NCBI GenBank assembly: GCA_039630345.1
Contig: JBCNVD010000034.1
Coordinates: 3,231 to 67,230, forward strand
From: Aquificaceae bacterium
Lineage (GTDB): Bacteria; Aquificota; Aquificia; Aquificales; Aquificaceae
Length of the DNA stretch: 64,000 bases
Direction: 5' to 3'
Shown here piece after piece: positions 7,084 to 31,414 of the stretch (its first letter is position 1; the number at the start of each line of letters is the position of its first letter). A program made the position numbers and the translations under genes. Below the pieces are notes generated by a model, which was not told the DNA's origin, searched no databases, and saw only the letters and a list, made by a program, of their open reading frames with translations.

Positions 7084-8751
7084 CTATTTTGCAACCTCTA
7101 CATGCCTTGTCTCTCTAATTACCACGACCTTTATCTGCCCTGGAAACTGCAGCTGCTCTTCTATCTTCCTTGCTATTTCTCTGGAAAGCCAGTGCGATTC
7201 CTCGTCAGAGAGCTCTTCCGGGTTTACTATCACCCTTACCTCTCTTCCTGCCTGCACCGCATAGACGTTGTTAACCCCTTTAAAAGAGCGCGCTATCTCT
7301 TCAAGCTTTTCAAGGCGTTTTAAATAAAGCTCTAAACTCTCTCTCCTTGCCCCGGGTCTTGCCGCAGATAGAGCGTCAGCTGCACAAACCAGAGCCACCT
7401 CCGGGTATCTTATAGGCTCTTCGTCATGATGAGCCCTTATGGCATTTAAAACCGCATCGTGCTCGCCAAACTTTCTGCAAAGCTCCACACCTATATCTGT
7501 ATGCGAACCGCCGGTCTCGTTTGAGATGGCTTTTCCAATGTCGTGTAAAAGCCCCGCTCTTCTTGCAAGCTGTGCGTTTAGCCCAAGCTCGCTTGCCATT
7601 AGCCCCGCAAGATTTGCAACCTCTTTTGAGTGAATCAAAACGTTTTGAGAGTAGCTGGTTCTAAAGTAGAGCTTGCCAATGTAGTAATATAGCGCAGGGT
7701 TTATGTCATTTAACCCAAGCTCGTAGCAGGTCTCTTCACCCGTTTTGCGAATCTTTTCGTCGATTTCTCTCTTTACCTCGTTTACGACCTCCTCTATCCT
7801 TGCAGGATGTATCCTCCCGTCCTGAATTAGCCTCTCAAGGGCTTCTCTTGCAATCTCTCTTCTAAGAGGGTCAAAGGAAGATATCGTAACTATATCAGGG
7901 GTGTCATCGATAATTAAGTCAACACCCGTTAATAACTCAAAAGTCCTTATGTTCCTGCCCTCTCTCCCTATGATTCTGCCTTTAAATTCGTTGTTAGGAA
8001 GCTCTACGGATGTGGTAGTGTAATTAACCGCAATCTCTGAGGAGAGTTTCTGTATGCTTGTTGTTATTATGCGCTTTGCCTCAAGCTCTGCTCTCTCTCT
8101 TGCCTCTTCTTCAATACGCTTTATTAGCTTTAAAACCTCTGCTTTTGACTCTTCTTCTGCTCTTTTGAGTATCTCAACTCTCGCTTCCTGCATCGTCATG
8201 CTGGCAATTCTTTGAAGCTCAAGCATCTCTTTTTGTCTTATACTCTCAATTTCCCGCTCTTTTTCCTCAAGACTTAAAGCTCTTACCTCAATAGCCTTTT
8301 GCTCTGCCTCTATGCGCTTTTTGGCTTCTCTGAGCTCTCTTTCCATGTTAAAGAGCTCTTCTTCTCTTCTTGAGAGGAGATTTTCTCTTCTCTCTAAGGC
8401 GCTCTCTCTTTGCTTTAAACTCTGGTCAAGACTTGCAATCTGGGCTTTTATTTCAGATAGATATTCCTCGACCTGCTTTTTCTTCTGCTCAAGCTCTAAC
8501 TTTATAGCCTCGCTCTCCTCTCTTGCGCTCTGTTTTATCCTGAGAGCTTCTTCTCTTGCATCCTCAAGGATTTTTTCTGCTTCCTGAGCGGCTCTTTCTC
8601 TTAGCTCTATGGCTTCTGCCCTCTCTAATTCCTCGCCACTGCTTTCTGGCAAAGCTATGCTCTGACTAACCTCTGGTTTGTTTCTAAAGACCAAAAAAAT
8701 TACTGTCAGAGCTAGAAAAACTATAACCAAAACCAAAAACGCTGTTAGCAT
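7084..8751 (-). CDS. rny: Ribonuclease Y
   Basis: N-terminal TM helix, a long E/K/R coiled coil, KH domain 'GRIIGREGRNIRTFELLTGVDLIIDD', and HD domain 'LLHDIGKA'. Confidence 0.9.
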   Translation of the reverse strand: MLTAFLVLVIVFLALTVIFLVFRNKPEVSQSIALPESSGEELERAEAIELRERAAQEAEKILEDAREEALRIKQSAREESEAIKLELEQKKKQVEEYLSEIKAQIASLDQSLKQRESALERRENLLSRREEELFNMERELREAKKRIEAEQKAIEVRALSLEEKEREIESIRQKEMLELQRIASMTMQEARVEILKRAEEESKAEVLKLIKRIEEEARERAELEAKRIITTSIQKLSSEIAVNYTTTSVELPNNEFKGRIIGREGRNIRTFELLTGVDLIIDDTPDIVTISSFDPLRREIAREALERLIQDGRIHPARIEEVVNEVKREIDEKIRKTGEETCYELGLNDINPALYYYIGKLYFRTSYSQNVLIHSKEVANLAGLMASELGLNAQLARRAGLLHDIGKAISNETGGSHTDIGVELCRKFGEHDAVLNAIRAHHDEEPIRYPEVALVCAADALSAARPGARRESLELYLKRLEKLEEIARSFKGVNNVYAVQAGREVRVIVNPEELSDEESHWLSREIARKIEEQLQFPGQIKVVVIRETRHVEVAK

Positions 8752-9296
8752 GTCAAACCTCCTGATGTTCTTTTTTCAGTTATCACCATATCAACCCTTT
8801 CGTCCCAGCTATCATATTCAAGCTCCTGAATGAGCTCCTCGTCAAAGCAAACGCCTATCTTTGGAGCTCTAACCAGCTTTAAAAACCTGTCGTAGTATCC
8901 TCCCCCGTATCCCAGCCTATAACCTCTTAAGTCAAAGCAAATGCCAGGCACTATTGCCAGCTCTAAGTCTGAAGGCTCTTTTGCAATTAACCCTTCAGGC
9001 TCTAAAGTCCCAAAAGGACCTCTCTTTAATATGCCTCTAAACTCAAACAGCAAAAGCCCGCCCTTTGCAACTGCTGGCAATAAAAGCTTTATACCTTCTT
9101 TATTTAGCTCCTGAAAAAAAGACCATAGCTGTGGCTCTTTCTTTATTGGCCAAAACCCAAGAATGGCTTTTGGTTTTAAATGAGAGATTATCTCTCTAAG
9201 TCTCATTGAGATATAAAAAGACCTCTTCTGTATATCTTCCTGGCTCATAAAGAGCCTTCTTTTTATAAAACTTCTTCTTAGATGCTCTTTTACCAT
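8745..9296 (-). CDS. 5-formyltetrahydrofolate cyclo-ligase
   Basis: Start taken at the ATG at 9296 ('MVKEHLRRSFIKRR...') with 'ggaggcggaaga' upstream. Contains 'VPGICFDLRGYRLGYGGGYYDRFL', typical of the MTHFS family. Confidence 0.8.
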   Translation of the reverse strand: MVKEHLRRSFIKRRLFMSQEDIQKRSFYISMRLREIISHLKPKAILGFWPIKKEPQLWSFFQELNKEGIKLLLPAVAKGGLLLFEFRGILKRGPFGTLEPEGLIAKEPSDLELAIVPGICFDLRGYRLGYGGGYYDRFLKLVRAPKIGVCFDEELIQELEYDSWDERVDMVITEKRTSGGLTC

Positions 9297-9299
9297 TCT

Positions 9300-9490
9300 T
9301 CCGCCTCCAGCCTGTTTTCGGAGGGGAAGGCAAACCCGCCCTTGCCGTGACTCAGGGACTATGTGGGCCCCAAACAAACTAAGGTGGGTGTCCTCCCGGA
9401 GCTCCTATGTGGATACCCCGGAGACCGGACTCCCTATTAAGGTCCCATGTGGACCCCAAATTCTGCCCTTACGCCACAAGCAGGGCAGGC
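9300..9490 (-). ncRNA. Candidate structured RNA (6S RNA or leader) in the pheT to 5-FCL spacer
   Basis: A 196-nt gap between co-directional genes that otherwise overlap. It is much more GC-rich than the flanks. A 'GGGG-N(1-3)-CCACAT(A/G)G' motif occurs three times, and several local hairpins are present. Its position directly upstream of a 5-FCL (ygfA-type) gene mirrors the ssrS-ygfA linkage known in proteobacteria. I could not derive a full 6S-like fold by hand. Confidence 0.35.
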
Positions 9491-9492
9491 TT

Positions 9493-11601
9493 TTATCTCA
9501 ATCTTGCGCCAAATCTCTCCTCAAGGAGAGACAGCATCTTGCCAACTATGGCATTAACTTCCTCGTCAGAGAGTGTTTTTCCAGGGTCTCTAAATTTCAC
9601 TCTCAGACCTACGCTCTTTTTGCCTTCCCCAACGCCTAAGTAAATGTCAAACACCTTCACCTCTTCCACATTTGCAAATTCAAGCACCAAGTTAACTAAT
9701 TTAGCCACTTCTATCTCTCTGTCTACTACAACACTTAAATCCCTCACTACAGGAGCGAAGTTTGAAATTCTCTTAAATTCCGGTTTTTTCCTTACTGGCT
9801 TTTCAAATAATACCTCTCCAACATAGATTTCCCCCCTTAGCTCAAGTTTTTTTGCAACTTCAGGGTTTAAAATACCTACAAAACCCCTTATCTCGTCATC
9901 TTTTTTGTAGACAACTTGGACCCCCGGATGCAAAAACCCCAGCTTTTCCCTGCTTATTTCAAGCCCTTGGGTGAACTTTAAAATCTCATGAAATACTTCC
10001 ATAGCATCCCAGATATCATAATTTCTTGCCGGATAGAGTCTCTTTTCTCCAACTATTAAAAATCCAGCCCCGTAGAGCTCTCTCTTAGATTTATATACGC
10101 TATCTAACTCAAATATTGCCATGGAGTAGTTATGCCTGCTTTGGTTATAAGCACATGTCTTTAAAAGCCCTGTTATTATATTAGACCTTATGAATCTCAA
10201 TGATTTAACAAGCGGGTTAAGGATTTCTATCTTAGGTACATCCAGCCCAAGAATCTCGTAAACATCAGCCCCTTCAAAGGAGAAGTTTATAACCTCGTAA
10301 AGCCCAAGAGAGGTCAATCTATCTCTTAGCTCTTCTATTAAATCCTGCTCTTTATCACTTGCAGGGACACAAACCCTCTTTTTTTCAAAATTATCAAGCC
10401 CCTCAAGACGCATAAACTCTTCAATAAGGTCAACATCTTCTTTAATGTCATGCTCTCTCCAGCCAGGGACTTTCACATTTAAAACCCCGTTTTCAAAATG
10501 GCATTTAAATCCAATCCTTTCAAGAGCCTTTGAAATGTCTTCTTTTTTAACTTCTTTGCCGGCATACAATCTTAGTTTCTCAGGATTTAATCTTAAAATT
10601 TTCTCTTCTGAGAGATTTTCAACTATCTCAACCTTTACTATCTTGCCTTTGCAAAGCTCTTTAATCATCTCAAGGGCAATTGCAAACGCTCTTTTAACGC
10701 CCCTTTTGTCAACCCCTCTCTCAAATCGAAAAGAGCTCTCTGTTCTTACATTGACTGATTTAAAAGACCTTCTTACCCTGCGCGCATTAAAATAAGCCCC
10801 CTCAAGAAAGCACCTTTTTGTGCTTTTGCTAACTGCGCTATTTAAACCCCCCACAACACCCGCAAGGGCTCTAACCTCCTGCCTATCAGCTATAACCAGA
10901 TTTTCAGCCCCTAAACTTAGCTTCTCACCAGAGAGGGTTATAAACTCCTCTTTTGGCTTTGCATCTCTTACCTCAAGCGGGAGAGTTATCCTCTCTAGGT
11001 CAAAAGCGTGAAGAGGCTGACCTGTTAGCATCATCACATAGTTTGTAATATCAACAAGGGCATTAATTGGTCTAACCCCGCATTGCAAAAGTCTTTTAAC
11101 CATCCATTGTGGCGAAGGGCCTATCTCAAGCTCTTCTATAATCGCCCCTATGTATAGCTCGCAATCCTGCGATTTGATCTCAATAAGCCCCTGTGCGTTT
11201 GATTTAAGCTCTGGCGCCTCCAGCGGCTTTAAGTGGCTATCTGTAAGGGCAGCTATTTCCCTCCCAAGCCCATAAACGCTTAATAAATCCCCCCTGTTTG
11301 GCGTTGGGTCAATTTCGATAATTTCCTCACCATAGCCCAGCGCTTCTGAAAGGGTTCTGACGCTTAATTGCCCGCCAAGGCAAAATCTGTCTTCTACGCC
11401 AAATCCAAGGTCTTTGTAGGTTATGACTCTATTGCCATCTTTGGCTACATAAAACCCTTCCAGGAGCTCTAAATTACCATCAACCCCAAGGTCAAAGTAA
11501 GATATTGTGGCCTCTACGCTCTTTAAAGATAAAAGGTTTGCAACCTCCTTTGGGTCTTTGACCTCCACAAACTCCCTTAGCCACTCAAGCCCTAATTTCA
11601 C
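9493..11601 (-). CDS. pheT: Phenylalanyl-tRNA synthetase beta subunit
   Basis: 702 aa starting 'MKLGLEWLREFVEV' (GTG start). B3/4, B5, FDX-ACB-type domain order, ending '...LSLLEERFGARLR'. Confidence 0.9.
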   Translation of the reverse strand: MKLGLEWLREFVEVKDPKEVANLLSLKSVEATISYFDLGVDGNLELLEGFYVAKDGNRVITYKDLGFGVEDRFCLGGQLSVRTLSEALGYGEEIIEIDPTPNRGDLLSVYGLGREIAALTDSHLKPLEAPELKSNAQGLIEIKSQDCELYIGAIIEELEIGPSPQWMVKRLLQCGVRPINALVDITNYVMMLTGQPLHAFDLERITLPLEVRDAKPKEEFITLSGEKLSLGAENLVIADRQEVRALAGVVGGLNSAVSKSTKRCFLEGAYFNARRVRRSFKSVNVRTESSFRFERGVDKRGVKRAFAIALEMIKELCKGKIVKVEIVENLSEEKILRLNPEKLRLYAGKEVKKEDISKALERIGFKCHFENGVLNVKVPGWREHDIKEDVDLIEEFMRLEGLDNFEKKRVCVPASDKEQDLIEELRDRLTSLGLYEVINFSFEGADVYEILGLDVPKIEILNPLVKSLRFIRSNIITGLLKTCAYNQSRHNYSMAIFELDSVYKSKRELYGAGFLIVGEKRLYPARNYDIWDAMEVFHEILKFTQGLEISREKLGFLHPGVQVVYKKDDEIRGFVGILNPEVAKKLELRGEIYVGEVLFEKPVRKKPEFKRISNFAPVVRDLSVVVDREIEVAKLVNLVLEFANVEEVKVFDIYLGVGEGKKSVGLRVKFRDPGKTLSDEEVNAIVGKMLSLLEERFGARLR

Positions 11602-24819: not shown

Positions 24820-26028
24820 ATGCGGACAGTTGTTTTAAAGTTTGGCGGGACATCTGTTGCAGACCTTGAGAGGATTGAAAACGCCGCAAGGCGGGTAATT
24901 AACAAACTAAAAGAGGGAAAAAGGGTGGTTGTGGTAACCTCCGCAATGGCAGGGGAAACCGATAATTTGCTTGCTCTTGCTTTTCAAAAGGGTAAAAATG
25001 TAAGTTTAAGAGAAGTTGACGCTCTTGTTTCAACAGGCGAGCAAAGATCTGCGTCTCTTTTTGCAATAACTCTCCAGAGACTTGGTTATAGTGCCAAAAG
25101 TCTTTGCGGTTGGCAGGTTCCTGTTTATACCGATAACCTCCATACAAAAGCAAGAATCATTGGCGTTAAAACCGAGAGAATCTTGAAAGAACTTGATGAG
25201 GGTGTCGTGCCTGTCGTTACGGGTTTTCAAGGGGTTAGCGAAGAGGGTGATATAACAACCCTTGGCAGGGGTGGGTCTGACCTCTCTGCGGTGGCTCTTG
25301 CCCACGCGCTATGCGCGGATTGTGAAATTTATACAGATGTAGAAGGTGTTTTCAGTGCAGACCCAAGGATAGTGAGCAATGCCAGAAAGGTAAGCAGGAT
25401 TTCTTACGAGGAGATGCTCGAGATGGCATCTCAGGGTGCTAAAGTTATGCAATCAAGGAGTGTTGAATACGCCATGAAATATGGCGTCAGGATACATGTA
25501 AGGAGTTCTTTTACTGAAGCTGAAGGCACCTGGATATTACCGGAGGAGGAAGTAATGGAAAAGCCAGAAGTGAGGGCAATTACGCTTGATAGAAACGAAT
25601 GCAGGATTACTCTCGTTGGGGTTGAGGATAGACCGGGTATAGCTTACGAAGTTTTTAGCGCACTCGGTCAGGCTCATATAGTAGTTGATATGATAGTTCA
25701 GAATGTATCGCATCAGGGCTTTACTGATCTTTCTTTCACTGTCAATAGGGGCGAGCAATCCAGAGCTTTTGAAATTGTCAAAGAAGTTGCTAAAAAAATT
25801 GGCGCAAAAGATGCTGTTTTGGATGACAAAATAGCCAAAATATCAGTCGTTGGCATAGGCATGAGGAGCTCTTATGGCACTGCAGCAAGGGTTTTTGAAG
25901 TTCTATATAAACTTGGAATTAACATAATGGCAATATCAACCTCGGAAATAAAAATATCCTGTCTTATAGAGGAAAAGTATGGCGAGCTGGCTTTGAGAGA
26001 GCTCCATCAGGTCTTTATAGAGCAATGA
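24820..26028 (+). CDS. lysC: Aspartate kinase
   Basis: 'VLKFGGTSV', 'GRGGSDLSA', and two C-terminal ACT domains. Confidence 0.9.
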
Positions 26029-26960
26029 GGGCGAAAGCCCTTGAGGTGCTTGAAGGTTTCAAATCTCTCAGGGTTTTTGTTGTTGGGGATGTTATCCTTG
26101 ATAGATACATCTTTGGAAAGGTCGAGAGAATCTCTCCAGAGGCTCCTGTACCGGTTTTGGAAGTAACTGGCGAAGACTTTCGCCTTGGCGGTGCAGGAAA
26201 TGTAGCTCTTAATCTCAAAAATTTGGGAGCTGAAGTTAGTATCTTTGGTGCTTTGGGAGACGACGAAGCCGGGAAAAAGGTAAGACAGCTTCTTTATCAA
26301 AACCAGATAGAGGATTTTACAATTCAGGATAGCAGGCGCACAACCCAAAAGATAAGAGCTGTAGGCCTATCCCAGCAGCTTCTCAGACTTGATTACGAAG
26401 ATAGAATAAAAATAAGCGATAGCGGTCTAAAAGAGCTGGAAAGTGCCCTTTCAAGATGGGAAGGAGACGGGATTGTAATTTCAGACTACTACAAAGGGGT
26501 TATATCTGACAAAGTGATGGAGATAGTGAGGCGAAAAAATCTGCCCATAGTAGTAGACCCAAGACCAAACAATGCGCATTTATATAAAGGTGTTAGCCTG
26601 ATAACCCCCAATGAAAAAGAGGCAAGGTCTATACTAAATTTGTCAAATTTAGAAGAGCTTGGCTGGTCAATCAAGAGAGAGCTTGAGCTAAAGGCCTTGA
26701 TGATTACTCTCGGTCCAAGAGGTATAGCTCTTTTTGAGGAGGGTTTTAAAATCTTTCCAGCGAAGGCAAGACAGGTATTTGATGTTTCGGGTGCAGGTGA
26801 TACTGTCTGCGCTGTTGCAAGTCTTTGTCTTTTTTTGAAAGAGAGTCTGTCACTTGCCTGTGAGCTTGCAAATTTAGCTGCGGGAGTGGTTGTTGCAAAA
26901 CTGGGAACTTATGCGATAAGTTCCAGGGAGCTCGAACTTGCAATCAGGCAAGAGCTTTGA
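26025..26960 (+). CDS. rfaE: Ribokinase-family sugar kinase, RfaE domain I-like (D-glycero-beta-D-manno-heptose-7-phosphate kinase)
   Basis: '[22 protein letters not shown]', 'GGAGNVA', C-terminal 'DVSGAGDTV'. ATGA overlap with lysC. Confidence 0.75.
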
Positions 26961-27261
26961 GGATATTGCTCTTAGTTACCTTCAATCCGCTGGTTATACG
27001 CTTGTTTGCAGGAATTTTAGGTGTCAAGATGGGGAGATAGACCTCATAGTTAGATATGGCGAATTGCTTGTTTTCGTAGAGGTCAAAGGCTCAAGGTATC
27101 TAAATCCAATTGAGAGAATAGGCAGGAGAAAACTTAAAAATCTTGTCTCCTGTATAGAGCAATATCTTAGCAAAAATCCACACTATGGTGATGTGAGACT
27201 GGATGTTATATGTATAAGTGCCAAAGGCTTAAGTCATTTAAGAGGTATTGAGATAGATTAG
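26938..27261 (+). CDS. yraN: YraN family (UPF0102) endonuclease-like protein
   Basis: TTG start. 'GEIDLIV....LVFVEVK' PD-(D/E)xK-like core. 107 aa. Confidence 0.7.
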   Translation: MQSGKSFEDIALSYLQSAGYTLVCRNFRCQDGEIDLIVRYGELLVFVEVKGSRYLNPIERIGRRKLKNLVSCIEQYLSKNPHYGDVRLDVICISAKGLSHLRGIEID

Positions 27262-28326
27262 GTTTTTTTCTGTCCAAGATTAAAAAAGAGGTTTTGAGAT
27301 AGCTATTAAAGAGCACTATTTTATTAGCACTCTTTGTCTTTCAAGACTTTGCATTCAGGAGTTTGCTCTTTTGTGTCGATTTTTTAACACCTGGATGCCT
27401 GATCTGGAGTAGATGGGTAGTTTGAAGCCTATTTGGGAAATCTAGGTGCTATCTCAAGAGGGGTGGTTTTCAAAACTATTTAACAAAAAGCCACAAACAG
27501 TCAAAATTGCAGATAAACCTATAGAAGGCAAAAGTTCCAAGTTTGGCAAAGTTACCCTCTGTTAGCCAGCAAATACATTCAGGCTAGACCTGATACATTT
27601 TATCTTTCAGGATACCGAGTCTCCGACTCTAAAAATACGCCGGCCGCTCATGAAAACACAAGAGAAGCCAGAGCTTGCCACTCTGCCACAAAAATTAAGC
27701 CCGCAGCAATGCTTAGCCTAGGCATCACCGAGCCTTTGGAAATGGCTGTCTATTTACGAAAACATCAGGGCTTCCCTCTACTCTGGCTTTTTCAGACCAC
27801 AGCATCCTTATTCTGACAACTGCAGGCATTTTTATATCTCATGGGTTTAGGTATCATTAAGGCTTTGAGTATCATATTACCTACATGAGAATACCATCTT
27901 GACCGCTAATATTGAGCTTGTGGCTTGCCCTATTGTGCTCTATCTTTGTCTTGTTCTTGAACTGGATCATTTGTGTTTACCGTAAACACTATCCACTCAT
28001 AGAATACACAGTTTTCTGAAGGTCTGATGTCCTAAAGGAATTGGCAAAGGTCTGCATCTAATCTAATGCTTGCTTCAGGCTTACTTAGGATTTAAAAGAG
28101 CGCTTATGCTTTGGCAGTGTCTTTCAGAGCTCTACACAAATAGTATCTATTTCCATGTCTTTTATAACTTGCAGTTCTTTTGAATGTCTCCTGAAAACTA
28201 CCAGTGGTTTTCTGCACCTGCTTCTAAATTTTAAGAGAGTTGTCTTTACTGCCCAAGAACTCTGAACTATTTGCTTTGTGAAGTTATAAATGAGGCTGAG
28301 GCTTATATTGGTCTATATTTTCATGT

Positions 28327-28476
28327 ATGGAACTCGTAATAACCGTCCTACTTGGCTACTTCCTTGCACCACTTGTCCTGATAGCTTATGTCGTGGGCTT
28401 TTGGATAGCGGTTGCGATTGGTGTCATCTGGGTTGTTCTGACCGTGGTGGATTACCATAAAGCACGGCGAACTTAA
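28327..28476 (+). CDS. Possible small hydrophobic protein (49 aa), below the ORF-track cutoff
   Basis: Hand translation: 'MELVITVLLGYFLAPLVLIAYVVGFWIAVAIGVIWVVLTVVDYHKARRT*'. Two predicted TM helices and a basic C-terminus. No obvious SD. Confidence 0.25.
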   Translation: MELVITVLLGYFLAPLVLIAYVVGFWIAVAIGVIWVVLTVVDYHKARRT

Positions 28477-28756
28477 AAGGGCCAAAACTCTTGATAGGAG
28501 CTCTCCAAAGATTTAACCTATAGAGCTTAGCCTGCCGCAGATATTTAAACAAGCGCCTCATAGCTAAACCAATGCTTCAAAAGCGTTAAGACTAATTCTG
28601 CGCTGACAAAGGGTTGGTTTGCTTGACTACCTTGTATATCTGACTACCAGCTTATAGTAATGCACCATGAGGTTGAAGTTATTCTCCCCAAAATGCCAAG
28701 ACCTTTCATTTTTCTGGTTTTTTGTTAGGCCATAGGTAATTCTGCCATGATACAGC

Positions 28757-28972
28757 CTATTTCAGGATAAGACATTTCGTGGTTTTTATTGCCTCTGCTA
28801 TAAGGGCTTTTAACCTGCCTGTTGACAGAGGCGTAGGGTTGTCTAAAAAGCCTAAGAAGTCCATTGCAAAATCAGGTCTATGAGGCACAGAGCCTTTTTG
28901 GGTCGTAAGGATTATGCGGATGTTTTGTAAGACTGACCTTATGGTGTCTCGCTCTACAAGCGTCAGAGGCAT
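28757..28972 (-). pseudogene. Truncated GpW/gp25-like baseplate wedge protein (N-terminal ~65 aa only)
   Basis: 'IRSVLQNIRIILTTQKGSVPHRPDFAMDFLGFLDNP....LKALIAEAIK' matches the GPW_gp25 pattern (I..il.T..Ge....P.fG). The protein stops about 40-50 aa short. No spike, sheath or tube genes flank it. Confidence 0.55.
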
Positions 28973-29041
28973 GAGGATGAGTTTAGAAGGTCATGGAAAT
29001 GTTTCAAGCAAGGATTTCAGAGCTGGCTTATATTTTCTTTA

Positions 29042-29293
29042 GTGAACATAACAGAGGTCATAACAGTAATCTCAGCCCTGACGGTCCTTATAGGTATTGC
29101 AGTAAGCCTGTTAAACAAAAGGATTGATGACGCTAACAGAAGGATTGACGAGCTACGGCAGGATATGGATAGGAGGTTTCAGGAAGTTAACAATAAGATT
29201 GATAACCTAAGGCAAGAGTTAAAGGAAGAGATAAGAGAAATCCGCCAGCTTCTTTATAAGGTTCTGGAAGTTCCTCAGAAATTAGACAAATAA
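29042..29293 (+). CDS. Membrane-anchored coiled-coil protein (83 aa)
   Basis: GTG start. N-terminal TM 'VITVISALTVLIGIAVSLL' followed by heptad-rich 'RRIDELRQDMDRRFQEVNNKIDNLRQELKEEIREIRQLL'. Confidence 0.45.
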   Translation: MNITEVITVISALTVLIGIAVSLLNKRIDDANRRIDELRQDMDRRFQEVNNKIDNLRQELKEEIREIRQLLYKVLEVPQKLDK

Positions 29294-29643
29294 AACTTTC
29301 TCAGATGCTCTGGCAATAGTTCCGCAGGATATGTTCTATCGGCTATTTTTTCTAAATGCCACCACCAGTGCTCTAAAGGATGCAGTTTTGATTCGTAGTT
29401 GCCTCCCACTTTCTCTTTTAGAACTTTCTTAATCAGAGCTTTGTCTACCTCTACCACCTCTGGAAGATTTTCTATGCCAGCGGCTTTTATCTCGTCTCTT
29501 ACTTCAAGCCATGCAGGACCTGTGTGGTAATCCTGTGCATAGGAAATAAAAGTGCCATCATACATAGGCGTAATCGCTGCCTGCCAGTCTTCTATCAGTT
29601 CTCTATAGTATTCTGACAGTTGCCCTTCCTTTTTTGACTGCAT
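29275..29643 (-). CDS. Hypothetical protein (122 aa), Trp/His-rich C-terminus
   Basis: The only intact ORF over 100 aa in the ORF-poor segment. 'LHPLEHWWWHLEKIADRTYPAELLPEH'. I recognise no family. Confidence 0.45.
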   Translation of the reverse strand: MQSKKEGQLSEYYRELIEDWQAAITPMYDGTFISYAQDYHTGPAWLEVRDEIKAAGIENLPEVVEVDKALIKKVLKEKVGGNYESKLHPLEHWWWHLEKIADRTYPAELLPEHLRKFYLSNF

Positions 29644-30067
29644 CGTTGAGCCATTCCTTTAAAAGATAATATAAGCTCATAGTTGGATTTAATGCTAACC
29701 TATCACTTCTGATGAAGATGTAATCTGTGCTCCCATCTACGAATTTGTCTGGTTTTTATATAATGTTATACAAAGCATTCAGGTATTCCACTGGGTCTTT
29801 ATGACCGAGTTTCTTTGCATTCTTATTCATTTGTCTCTGTGTCTCTTTCCCTAGCTACTTCCTAAATGAGTTATAATCCTATTTTCTATCTCTTCAGGCT
29901 TTATATCTCTCAGCCTAGCTTAAGCACAGCCGTAGGCAGTCATAGTCCTCTACATGCGCCACTATCCTGCATCTGCTTTAATTTCTCAAAAAATCTGCAA
30001 CACATTTTGGGAGATACATGGACTTTGCGAAACATACAGGGAAATCCTTAAATACAATCTGCATTAG

Positions 30068-30083
30068 AGTGTTGCATATTTTT
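30068..30083 (+). repeat. 16-nt direct repeat copy 1 ('agtgttgcatattttt')
   Basis: An identical 16-mer recurs at 30557-30572. The embedded 'TTGCAT' could be a -35-like element. Confidence 0.6.
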
Positions 30084-30556
30084 AGCAATTTTGAATATTT
30101 CGCTACCCTTTCAAGGCTTTTAATATCAAGGCTTTTACAACATCGGGTTTCTAAAAAAATCTGCACACTTTAATGTGATAAATCGCTAAAACTGCGCGGG
30201 ATGAATGGGCTTTATGCAAAACGGCAAATTTATCAAAATAAACACTTGCCCTGAAAAGGAAGCTTTAGTAGCTTACCGAGATAGCATTTTTCTAAATTTA
30301 GACTTTTTCAGCTTGGTGGGTGTTAGCGTGCGCTTGTTTTATGAGTTCAAACTGCTCTTATTTAAACAATAATAGCTGCCTTGCTAGGACAGGCCTCAGT
30401 AGTTTCACAGTTTGTATTCAGCTCTCATTATTTGCCTGATTGTCTTGATGTCTTTGAATGTAGCCCATGTGGGTTTTCTCTTATATATGTTTCACAAACT
30501 TGCGCCTTTGACCCTCTGTCAATTCATCAGTATTTTTTGTAAGTTTATCACTTTTA

Positions 30557-30572
30557 AGTGTTGCATATTTTT
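30557..30572 (+). repeat. 16-nt direct repeat copy 2 ('agtgttgcatattttt')
   Basis: Identical to 30068-30083. Lies 93 nt upstream of tRNA-Leu. Confidence 0.6.
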
Positions 30573-30604
30573 TTAAAAGTTCGTAAACTTATTGATAGCC
30601 AATA

Positions 30605-30634
30605 TTGTCAAAAATAAAAAGTGCTGAGTATTTT
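30605..30634 (+). promoter_or_regulatory. Possible promoter of tRNA-Leu
   Basis: 'TTGTCA' - 18 nt - 'TATTTT', about 30 nt upstream of the mature tRNA 5' end. Confidence 0.3.
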
Positions 30635-30664
30635 TGAGAAAGTTGAGGTTCGGAAGATAACAAA

Positions 30665-30748
30665 GCCGGAGTGGCGGAATTGGCAGACGCAGGGGATTCA
30701 AAATCCCCCGCCCGCAAGGGCGTGTGGGTTCGACTCCCACCTCCGGCA
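30665..30748 (+). tRNA. tRNA-Leu (CAA), long variable arm
   Basis: Acceptor gccggag/ctccggc, anticodon stem gggga/tcccc with loop ttCAAaa, variable arm 'cgcccgcaagggcgtg', T arm tgggt-tcgactc-ccac region. CCA is not encoded. Confidence 0.9.
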
Positions 30749-30760
30749 TAAACTTAAAGC

Positions 30761-31414
30761 ATGGAAAGAGTGATAGTTTTACTCTCTGGTGGTATGGATA
30801 GCGCCGTGCTTTTATGGCTTTGCAGGCAAAAATTCAACGAAGTTTTTGCAATTTCTTTTGATTATGGTCAAAGACACTCTGTTGAACTAAAATATGCCAA
30901 AGAGCTTGCGAAGATTGCTGATGTTTTAGAGCATATAATAGTGAAACTTCCGCATTATAGCCTTCTTAGTGCTTCCGCTTTGCTAAGTTCAGAGATGGAT
31001 TTGTCTAACTATAGCCACGATGGCGTGCCTCAAACGTATGTGCCTATGAGAAATTTAATCTTTATATCGATTGCAAGCGCATTTGCGGACGAAAAATCAA
31101 TTCAAAACATAGCAATAGGCGTTCATGCTCTTGATAGTCCCTATCCTGATTGCAGGCCAGAGTTTATAACATCTGCCGAGGCTGCTATCAATGCAGGCTC
31201 ATCGTATGTTTTCAAAACAAAGCGCAGGATTTCAATCTTTGCGCCGTTTCTTGGCATGACAAAGGCTGAAATCGCAAATCTTGGCAAGAGTCTAAAAGTT
31301 CCTTTTGAGATGACATATTCTTGCTATGCAGGCACTGAGCCACCCTGCGGAAAATGTCTGGCTTGTATGCAAAGAGAGAGAGCTCTTCTTGAGGCCGGGG
31401 TTATTCTACAGTAA
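30761..31414 (+). CDS. queC: 7-cyano-7-deazaguanine synthase
   Basis: PP-loop 'VLLSGGMDSAV', C-terminal Zn cluster 'SCY....PCGKCLAC'. Confidence 0.9.
   Translation: MERVIVLLSGGMDSAVLLWLCRQKFNEVFAISFDYGQRHSVELKYAKELAKIADVLEHIIVKLPHYSLLSASALLSSEMDLSNYSHDGVPQTYVPMRNLIFISIASAFADEKSIQNIAIGVHALDSPYPDCRPEFITSAEAAINAGSSYVFKTKRRISIFAPFLGMTKAEIANLGKSLKVPFEMTYSCYAGTEPPCGKCLACMQRERALLEAGVILQ

Follow-up and report, generated by a model that had tools for sequence, protein, structure and literature searches.

Probable remains of a myovirus-type prophage in an ORF-poor segment beside tRNA-Leu of an Aquificales genome

The window analysed in this study is a stretch of 64,000 nt (G000:C28:3231-67230) from a metagenome-assembled genome (MAG) of the Aquificales, denoted as G000 (1.16 Mb, 41 contigs, 96% complete). 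Between yraN and a tRNA-Leu gene, the window contains a 3.4 kb segment (27262-30660) that is poor in open reading frames (ORFs). The segment likely holds the remains of a myovirus-type prophage, of a type which is still intact in related hot-spring bacteria, and its two flanks are most likely the same DNA in a decayed state. As judged by sequence comparison, the core of the segment (about 28485-29983, minus strand) is a relic whose pieces are collinear with myovirus-like prophages still intact in related thermophiles, and it is situated 5' of tRNA-Leu. The element is dead as a phage and has no mechanism of its own; the segment is a further example of a cryptic prophage remnant, an ordinary genomic fossil with dead structural genes and a few retained small genes.

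Phage structural genes in the core of the segment

The pseudogene of a MuF-type minor head protein was located at 29606-29983 on the minus strand. The C-terminal ~125-165 residues are kept, and the first ~285 residues are missing or unrecognisable. The C-terminal ~125 residues align at 29913-29606 (-), directly upstream of a gene encoding a 122-aa protein, and a weak collinear piece reaches 29983. In tblastn, the relic matched residues 327-449 of a 449-aa protein of genome G089 with an E-value of 9e-12. With the MuF profiles, collinear pieces were obtained at positions 286-301, 325-359 and 358-449, and the family profile resulted in an independent E-value (iE) of 3.9e-10. The frame is interrupted by an in-frame stop at 29756-29758 and by at least one frameshift near 29850-29857; in the translations, short C-terminal motifs in common with the homologs stand beside stops. 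The homologs carry Pfam Phage_Mu_F and PHROG 115, and no Phage_Mu_F (PF04233) signal was detected anywhere in G000 at E up to 10. Because only sequence C-terminal of the Mu F domain is aligned, the relic is classified by sequence as a fragment of a MuF-domain gene and not as a Phage_Mu_F member.

The N-terminus of a gp25/GpW baseplate wedge protein was found at 28757-28972 on the minus strand. About 65 residues are homologous, the homology stops at about 28778-28781, and the frame stays open for all 71 codons. The scrap matched PHROG 43 with an E-value of 7.6e-11 and its own profile with 78 bits (positions 3-64 of 105); the Pfam family GPW_gp25 (PF04965) gave 21.8 bits at positions 5-57 of 96, which is below the cut-off of 27.2. 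Its identity to the intact 103-aa gp25 in a tail cluster of genome G012 is 65.6% (residues 2-65 of the latter), and the genome-wide search of G000 yielded a gp25 signal from this scrap only. By these alignments the 71-aa ORF is a clear gp25 homolog of which only an N-terminal fragment is present. A truncated gp25-like gene had been named in a preliminary description of this DNA, and the profile matches agree with it, the truncation lying at about residue 65.

When the segment was compared with 111 loci from stop to stop in six frames, a further scrap was recognised at 28485-28634 on the minus strand; it derives from the frameshift extension of a tail assembly chaperone and has three in-frame stops in 50 codons. 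The tblastn matches with L114:15994-16197 and L046:16414-16641 resulted in an E-value of 4.4e-8, with 34% identity and 62% positives. The corresponding piece of ~60 residues was found conserved in three intact prophages; it stands there between the genes for tube and tape measure, in a frame that lacks its own start. A frame of this kind at this place is the usual signature of a tail chaperone frameshift extension. Between the gp25 and chaperone scraps, 28674-28745 (-) matched positions 27-50 of 172 of the tail tube profile with an iE of 0.057, a value at which several chance matches are expected among the 69 profiles; this is a possible, weak tube scrap, backed mainly by its collinear position.

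Comparison with intact prophages

The gene order of the intact relatives was determined to be: small terminase, large terminase, portal, MuF, 122-aa gene, gp25, baseplate J, gpI, fibres, sheath, tube, chaperone and tape measure. The relatives carry a Mu gp27-like small terminase, a T4-type large terminase, portal, Phage_Mu_F, GPW_gp25, Baseplate_J and Tail_P2_I. In the intact modules, the MuF protein of 430-460 aa is followed by a gene of the 122-aa family, after which either gp25-Baseplate_J-Tail_P2_I-fibres or a scaffold-like gene and then a capsid gene were found. In the metagenomic locus L103, the MuF gene (233-1534), the 122-aa gene (1479-1859), gp25 (2156-2467), tube (8708-9226), the chaperone piece (9473-9604) and the tape measure gene (from 9613) follow each other. 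The four core features of the window share one strand and have the order of L103, which was found also in L047, L048 and L108. The distance from gp25 to the chaperone is about 7 kb in L103, comprising baseplate J, gpI, fibres, sheath and tube, versus 120 nt in the window. Six-frame searches with the 69 profiles and Pfam detected no terminase, portal, capsid, sheath, tube, tape measure, Baseplate_J or Mu_F elsewhere in the 96%-complete G000.

Intact myovirus-like prophages were observed in genomes of Aquificaceae, Sulfurihydrogenibium, Hydrogenobacter and Thermodesulfobacteria and in hot-spring metagenomes; the loci are L046 (G089:C4:13000-32900), L047, L048, L103, L108 and L114/L141. To our knowledge, few viruses are known for the phyla of Aquificales and Thermodesulfobacteria. 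As of 2020, no virus had been isolated from the Aquificae phylum, and no prophages matching the viruses of that study were found (PMC7689252). The window resembles myoviruses with a MuF/SPP1 gp7-type head module and a P2/Mu-type baseplate (gp25-J-I) in keeping MuF and gp25 pieces. The thermophile elements differ from these myoviruses in that a gene of 116-136 aa always stands right after MuF and that, in one thermophile subtype, the baseplate genes come directly after the head genes; the copy in the window differs also in being non-functional.

A tailocin- or extracellular contractile injection system (eCIS)-like element, which had been suggested in the preliminary description, does not agree with these results. 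R-type tailocins and eCIS share with the window a gp25-like baseplate wedge and a tail assembly chaperone. In contrast, they have no head genes, whereas the window has a MuF head relic two genes from gp25, and the intact relatives start with terminase and portal and have a capsid gene. No sheath, tube or spike gene was found in G000. Because a head gene is present, the relic is not regarded as a tailocin or eCIS.

Cryptic and defective prophage remnants are known in bacterial chromosomes, for example the cryptic prophages of E. coli K-12. Morphogenesis genes in the order of an intact phage and an inactivated, incomplete set of such genes, two marks of a prophage remnant, were both found here; the third mark, an integrase or att site, was not. 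The relic is comparable with the K-12 prophages in its collinear structural scraps, in truncations, stops and frameshifts, in large deletions and in a few small accessory genes, and like other cryptic prophage remnants it adjoins a tRNA gene. It differs in being far smaller (3.4 kb) and more eroded, in having no integrase or att remnant, and in its host, a thermophile with a small genome.

The ORF-poor segment and its two flanks

The right boundary of the segment is tRNA-Leu(CAA), which was located at 30665-30748 (+) by both ARAGORN and Rfam. The ORF listing agrees with the preliminary description of an ORF-poor segment of 3.4 kb. In 27262-28756 there are no start-to-stop ORFs of at least 60 aa, the maximum being 56 aa, and 29644-30660 contains only two mutually overlapping ORFs of 61 and 62 aa, both as had been described. 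The ORFs of 71 aa (28757-28972, -), 83 aa (29042-29293, +) and 122 aa (29275-29643, -) in between are also at the positions given there. Genome-wide, 534 gaps without an ORF of at least 100 aa were found, summing to 5.1% of the 1.16 Mb assembly; by length, 27262-29274 (2013 nt) is the first and 29644-30760 (1117 nt) the sixth of them. A dicodon coding score was trained on 464 long ORFs of G000. Every neighbouring gene scored from +10 to +40 per 50 codons, and the genes around the segment are all intact. Within the segment, only the 83-aa and 122-aa genes had a host-like score.

The left flank (27262-28326) is non-coding and stands at the position of the tape measure gene of the intact phage type. 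The right flank (29984-30660), non-coding and AT-rich, stands at the position of the front part of MuF. Neither the number of stops in the flanks nor their longest frames free of stops (99 and 62 codons) differed from those of their own shuffles, and the dicodon score was near zero or negative in all six frames. The GC content of the left and right flanks was 40.5% and 34.7%, respectively, versus 42.6% of the genome and 62-68% of the four tRNAs of the window; no 100-nt window of the flanks exceeded 52% GC.

Apart from the chaperone scrap and a 49-aa peptide, similarity searches with the flanks remained without result, both in the protein searches (ORFs and stop-to-stop frames of at least 20 aa from the 111 loci) and with the 69 family profiles against a read-through six-frame translation. 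No match was found between the flanks and all ORFs and proteins of their own genome. DNA searches with the segment and the left flank, in which the right flank was covered as part of the whole segment, resulted, outside the three genes, only in matches of chance size (31 and then 178 Aquificota genomes, INPHARED phages, PLSDB plasmids and 83 loci of the 122-aa family). A 25-nt match of 28157-28181 with three genomes was rejected as AT-rich coding noise.

Two patches of the left flank match adjacent host genes. Positions 27749-27773 agree in 24 of 25 nt with a GNAT-like gene (G000:C6:50316-50340), and 27787-27802 in 16 of 16 nt with the neighbouring aroA (G000:C6:50052-50067). The patches are on the same strand, their order is opposite to that on C6, and nothing alignable was found around them. 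A chance origin of the patches is unlikely, and they may be filler DNA from repair. In the right flank, the 12-mer TGCAKATTTTTT occurs at 29988-29999, 30154-30165 and 30562-30573. G000 contains five copies of it in total, one of them in another ORF desert (G000:C10:3256-3267), and the expectation is 0.1 per 64 kb. The right flank also holds a 16-nt direct repeat and a promoter-like site at 30605-30634 (+); the last ~60 nt of this flank probably contain the promoter of tRNA-Leu, for which this site is a candidate. A chromosomal replication origin was rejected as a candidate: no TTATCCACA-like DnaA box with up to one mismatch was present in 27262-30660, and the total of the window equalled the chance expectation.

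In a second hot-spring run (X2), from which the host is nearly absent, contigs of other organisms at least 85% alike were found over 28211-28612, 29819-30019 and 30422-30622, and one such contig joins 30578 to 29284. Since this run is poor in the host, parts of the flanks also circulate in other members of the community.

The position, the random-like statistics and the low GC content argue that the flanks are most likely DNA of the same prophage decayed past recognition, together with the tRNA promoter. As the chaperone scrap already has stops at random density, less conserved neighbours of it are expected to be unrecognisable. It is unlikely that the flanks are unrelated to this prophage, i.e. 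that they belong to another mobile element, to filler from deletion and repair or to a lineage-specific spacer, with only the core of ~1.5 kb being phage-derived. Such an origin would agree with the missing similarity to tape-measure, MuF N-terminal, portal or other families of 83 related elements, with the unequal decay of the pieces and with the occurrence of TGCAKATTTTTT in both the right flank and the ORF desert of contig C10, and the scrambled patches of host aroA and GNAT suggest template-switch filler. However, the positions of the flanks fit the gene order of the intact phages, and since tape-measure genes diverge fast, decay would be expected to erase the signal. Other community members moreover contain parts of the flanks in other arrangements, as is the case with mobile DNA.

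Points against the prophage origin and the relation to tRNA-Leu

The following results weigh against a prophage as the source of the segment. About 1.7 of the 3.4 kb showed no similarity to any phage gene, even by family profiles and stop-reading six-frame searches, and the two aroA-GNAT patches are not explained by phage decay. The gp25 scrap, with 65% identity and no stop, is far less decayed than the chaperone scrap 120 nt away; because of this unequal decay, the core pieces may differ in age or origin. The one congeneric genome (69% complete) lacks yraN, and its contigs end at both borders of the segment. Neither an att repeat nor a repeat of the tRNA-Leu sequence was found in 27000-31000. 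An integrase relic was also absent from the segment, the sole tyrosine-integrase signal being on contig C26; serine integrases and transposases were not searched.

In the preliminary description, a decayed integrated element at a tRNA-associated site had been considered. For the core, the decayed phage is supported by four collinear minus-strand pieces. Integration at the tRNA found no support, there being no integrase and no repeat, and the relation to tRNA-Leu is one of adjacency only. Elements related to the relic were often observed near tRNAs.

Search for non-coding RNA

A block of non-coding RNA genes had been proposed as another explanation, with covariance-model scanning as a check. 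The Rfam models matched tRNA-Leu only, at the gathering thresholds as well as under lax filters with E-values as high as 5, and, together with the low GC content and the lack of excess structure, this does not favour the proposal. The folding z-scores of 150-nt windows on both strands (about 96 windows) scattered around 0. One value, -3.55 for 28500-28649 (+), is near the expected extreme for about 96 windows.

It is very unlikely that the flanks encode lineage-specific non-coding RNA, either a large structured RNA or minus-strand antisense RNAs which would pair with the aroA-GNAT mRNA via the 25-nt and 16-nt patches. The long stretch without coding signal does adjoin a tRNA, the patches do match adjacent host genes on the same strand, which is hardly a matter of chance, and the z-score of -3.55 could be taken as a sign of structure. 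In contrast, the window with this score overlaps the chaperone relic, no Rfam family was matched, and no conservation was found in the 178 Aquificota genomes. Structured RNAs of thermophiles are generally GC-rich, whereas the flanks have 35-40% GC, far from the values of the tRNAs of the window. The segment resembles GOLLD, ROOL and similar RNAs in being ORF-free DNA of at least 1 kb in a phage-derived context beside a tRNA. It differs from them in having no covariance-model match, no excess structure, no conservation and a low GC content in a thermophile.

Verification of the assembly

In the Logan contigs of the hot-spring run in which the sequence is best represented, one piece spans 26000-29105, a second 29572-30572 and a further one 30544-30692. 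Their depth was 79-92 over the segment and 71-79 over the flanking genes. The contigs agree with the window except for 2 nt inserted at 27618 and a small number of substitutions. Because an independent assembly reproduces the sequence at a depth like that of its surroundings, the segment is real and not an assembly artefact.

An error of assembly or binning, i.e. a chimeric join or an error-ridden sequence which breaks real genes, is extremely unlikely. G000 is a MAG of 41 contigs, the congeneric MAG has breaks at both borders, and the multi-copy families in the segment fragment the Logan assembly at 29105-29572, all of which would fit such an error. However, the independent k=31 contigs bridge from yraN into the segment as far as 29105 and cover the two further pieces with nearly identical sequence, and the neighbouring genes are intact. 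The stops of the relics are substitutions in otherwise alignable sequence, not homopolymer errors. The problem of assembly or sequence quality that the preliminary description had allowed for is therefore not borne out by contigs which match at the depth of the flanking genes. The yraN flank and tRNA-Leu-queC do not stand next to each other in other genera.

Proposed course of decay

A prophage of the intact type lost nearly the whole phage by large deletions, including the about 7 kb between gp25 and the chaperone. Afterwards, point mutations put stops and frameshifts into the MuF and chaperone scraps; both steps are evident from the sequence. Three small genes, those of 122 aa and 83 aa and perhaps the 49-aa peptide, stayed intact. 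The tape-measure DNA and the DNA of the MuF front presumably decayed past recognition and gave rise to the two flanks.

With this explanation, the biggest seemingly empty stretch of a very compact thermophile genome is a phage fossil, and the false lead of a new RNA locus is thereby removed. The relic illustrates how deletion-biased decay removes prophages from a small genome (1.16 Mb). Two further results are a family of myovirus-like prophages, indicated for Aquificales and Thermodesulfobacteria, and a conserved 122-aa gene after the MuF head gene, with no known fold, which in G000 outlived the rest of the phage.

Small intact genes of the segment

The 122-aa gene (29275-29643, -) belongs to a phage-linked family, the profile of which it matched with 137.6 bits (iE 1e-43). 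It had the top host-like dicodon score of the segment and keeps 8 of the 8 invariant columns of a 16-sequence alignment. The family is characterised by the C-terminal motif WWWHL..I....YP..LLPEHL, and in at least 13 loci of intact elements its gene follows MuF. The gene had previously been described as an orphan; members of its family were detected in 61 of 148 Aquificales genomes, and a single genome may have as many as five of them. The family was also observed in Caldimicrobium, Thermodesulfobacterium, Desulfurobacterium, a Kryptonium MAG and others. An AF2 model of the protein is helical (pLDDT 88.9). The sequence had no match in Pfam, NCBIfam and PADLOC and no significant match in PHROG; the fold had no match in the PDB or BFVD by Foldseek, and a PDB profile search and ESM Atlas were uninformative. 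In the scans of viral and metagenome contigs, single 49-aa or 122-aa protein queries found nothing, and only an alignment query succeeded.

The 83-aa gene (29042-29293, +) encodes an N-terminal membrane helix and a coiled coil and has a host-like dicodon score. It shares 19 nt with the 3' end of the 122-aa gene and is inserted between this gene and gp25, where the intact phages have only a spacer of 180-290 nt. Its identity to copies in another genus, in which the family occurs in tandem arrays, is up to 83% (nt) and 76% (aa), and it is full length in comparison with family members starting M-N-I-T-E-V. Family searches with the protein gave only weak DUF948 and coiled-coil matches. Homologs were observed in tandem arrays of about 4-8 copies with a varying number of short internal repeats (G066:C1:590415-591753, which is L058, and L057, L059 and L062).

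The third ORF (28327-28476, +), of 49 codons, encodes a hydrophobic two-helix peptide, a short member of a family of small membrane proteins of ~67 aa. A profile of three family members matched it at positions 3-53 of 67 with an iE of 1.1e-6, and tblastn against L095 resulted in 56% identity over 18 aa. Among about 15 differences from related community contigs, the five listed are two synonymous changes, one V>I replacement and two changes within one Ala codon. Since no host-like dicodon signal and no Shine-Dalgarno sequence were found for this ORF, its function is uncertain. Members of the ~67-aa family with a basic tail were observed at L094:1941-2144, L095:743-955, L096:1214-1414 and L075 (G162:C271):1405-1608, with a weak SieB-like Pfam match (E 1.2e-3). 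Elsewhere the genes of this family are convergent to stand-alone genes of the 122-aa family, and the same pairing was found in G162:C271.

The open frames, the conserved residues and, for the first two, the host-like codons suggest that the 122-aa gene, the 83-aa gene and perhaps the 49-aa peptide are intact and presumably still used. A gene of the 122-aa family with a convergent small membrane protein was found outside prophages in other thermophiles (G072:C189, L094-L096 and G162:C271), and the small membrane proteins occur in tandem arrays and have weak SieB- and spanin-like matches. Owing to this recurrence outside prophages, the arrays and these matches, the pair could be speculated to represent an undescribed phage-derived exclusion, abortive-infection or addiction module of bacteria from hot springs, and selection might then have kept the 122-aa protein and the convergent small membrane proteins as a small module; the idea is a tentative one with a modest chance of being correct.

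Other ORF-poor stretches of the genome

Further ORF-poor stretches of G000 were observed at C10:369-1658, C10:2157-3562, C10:33259-34237, C26:21579-23473, C36:20839-21689, C36:22089-23204 and C37:22241-23421. They are not rRNA and matched no other Rfam family, and two of them adjoin tRNAs. These stretches may be further decayed mobile elements. One of them adjoins the only tyrosine integrase of the genome, located at C26:20142-20627.

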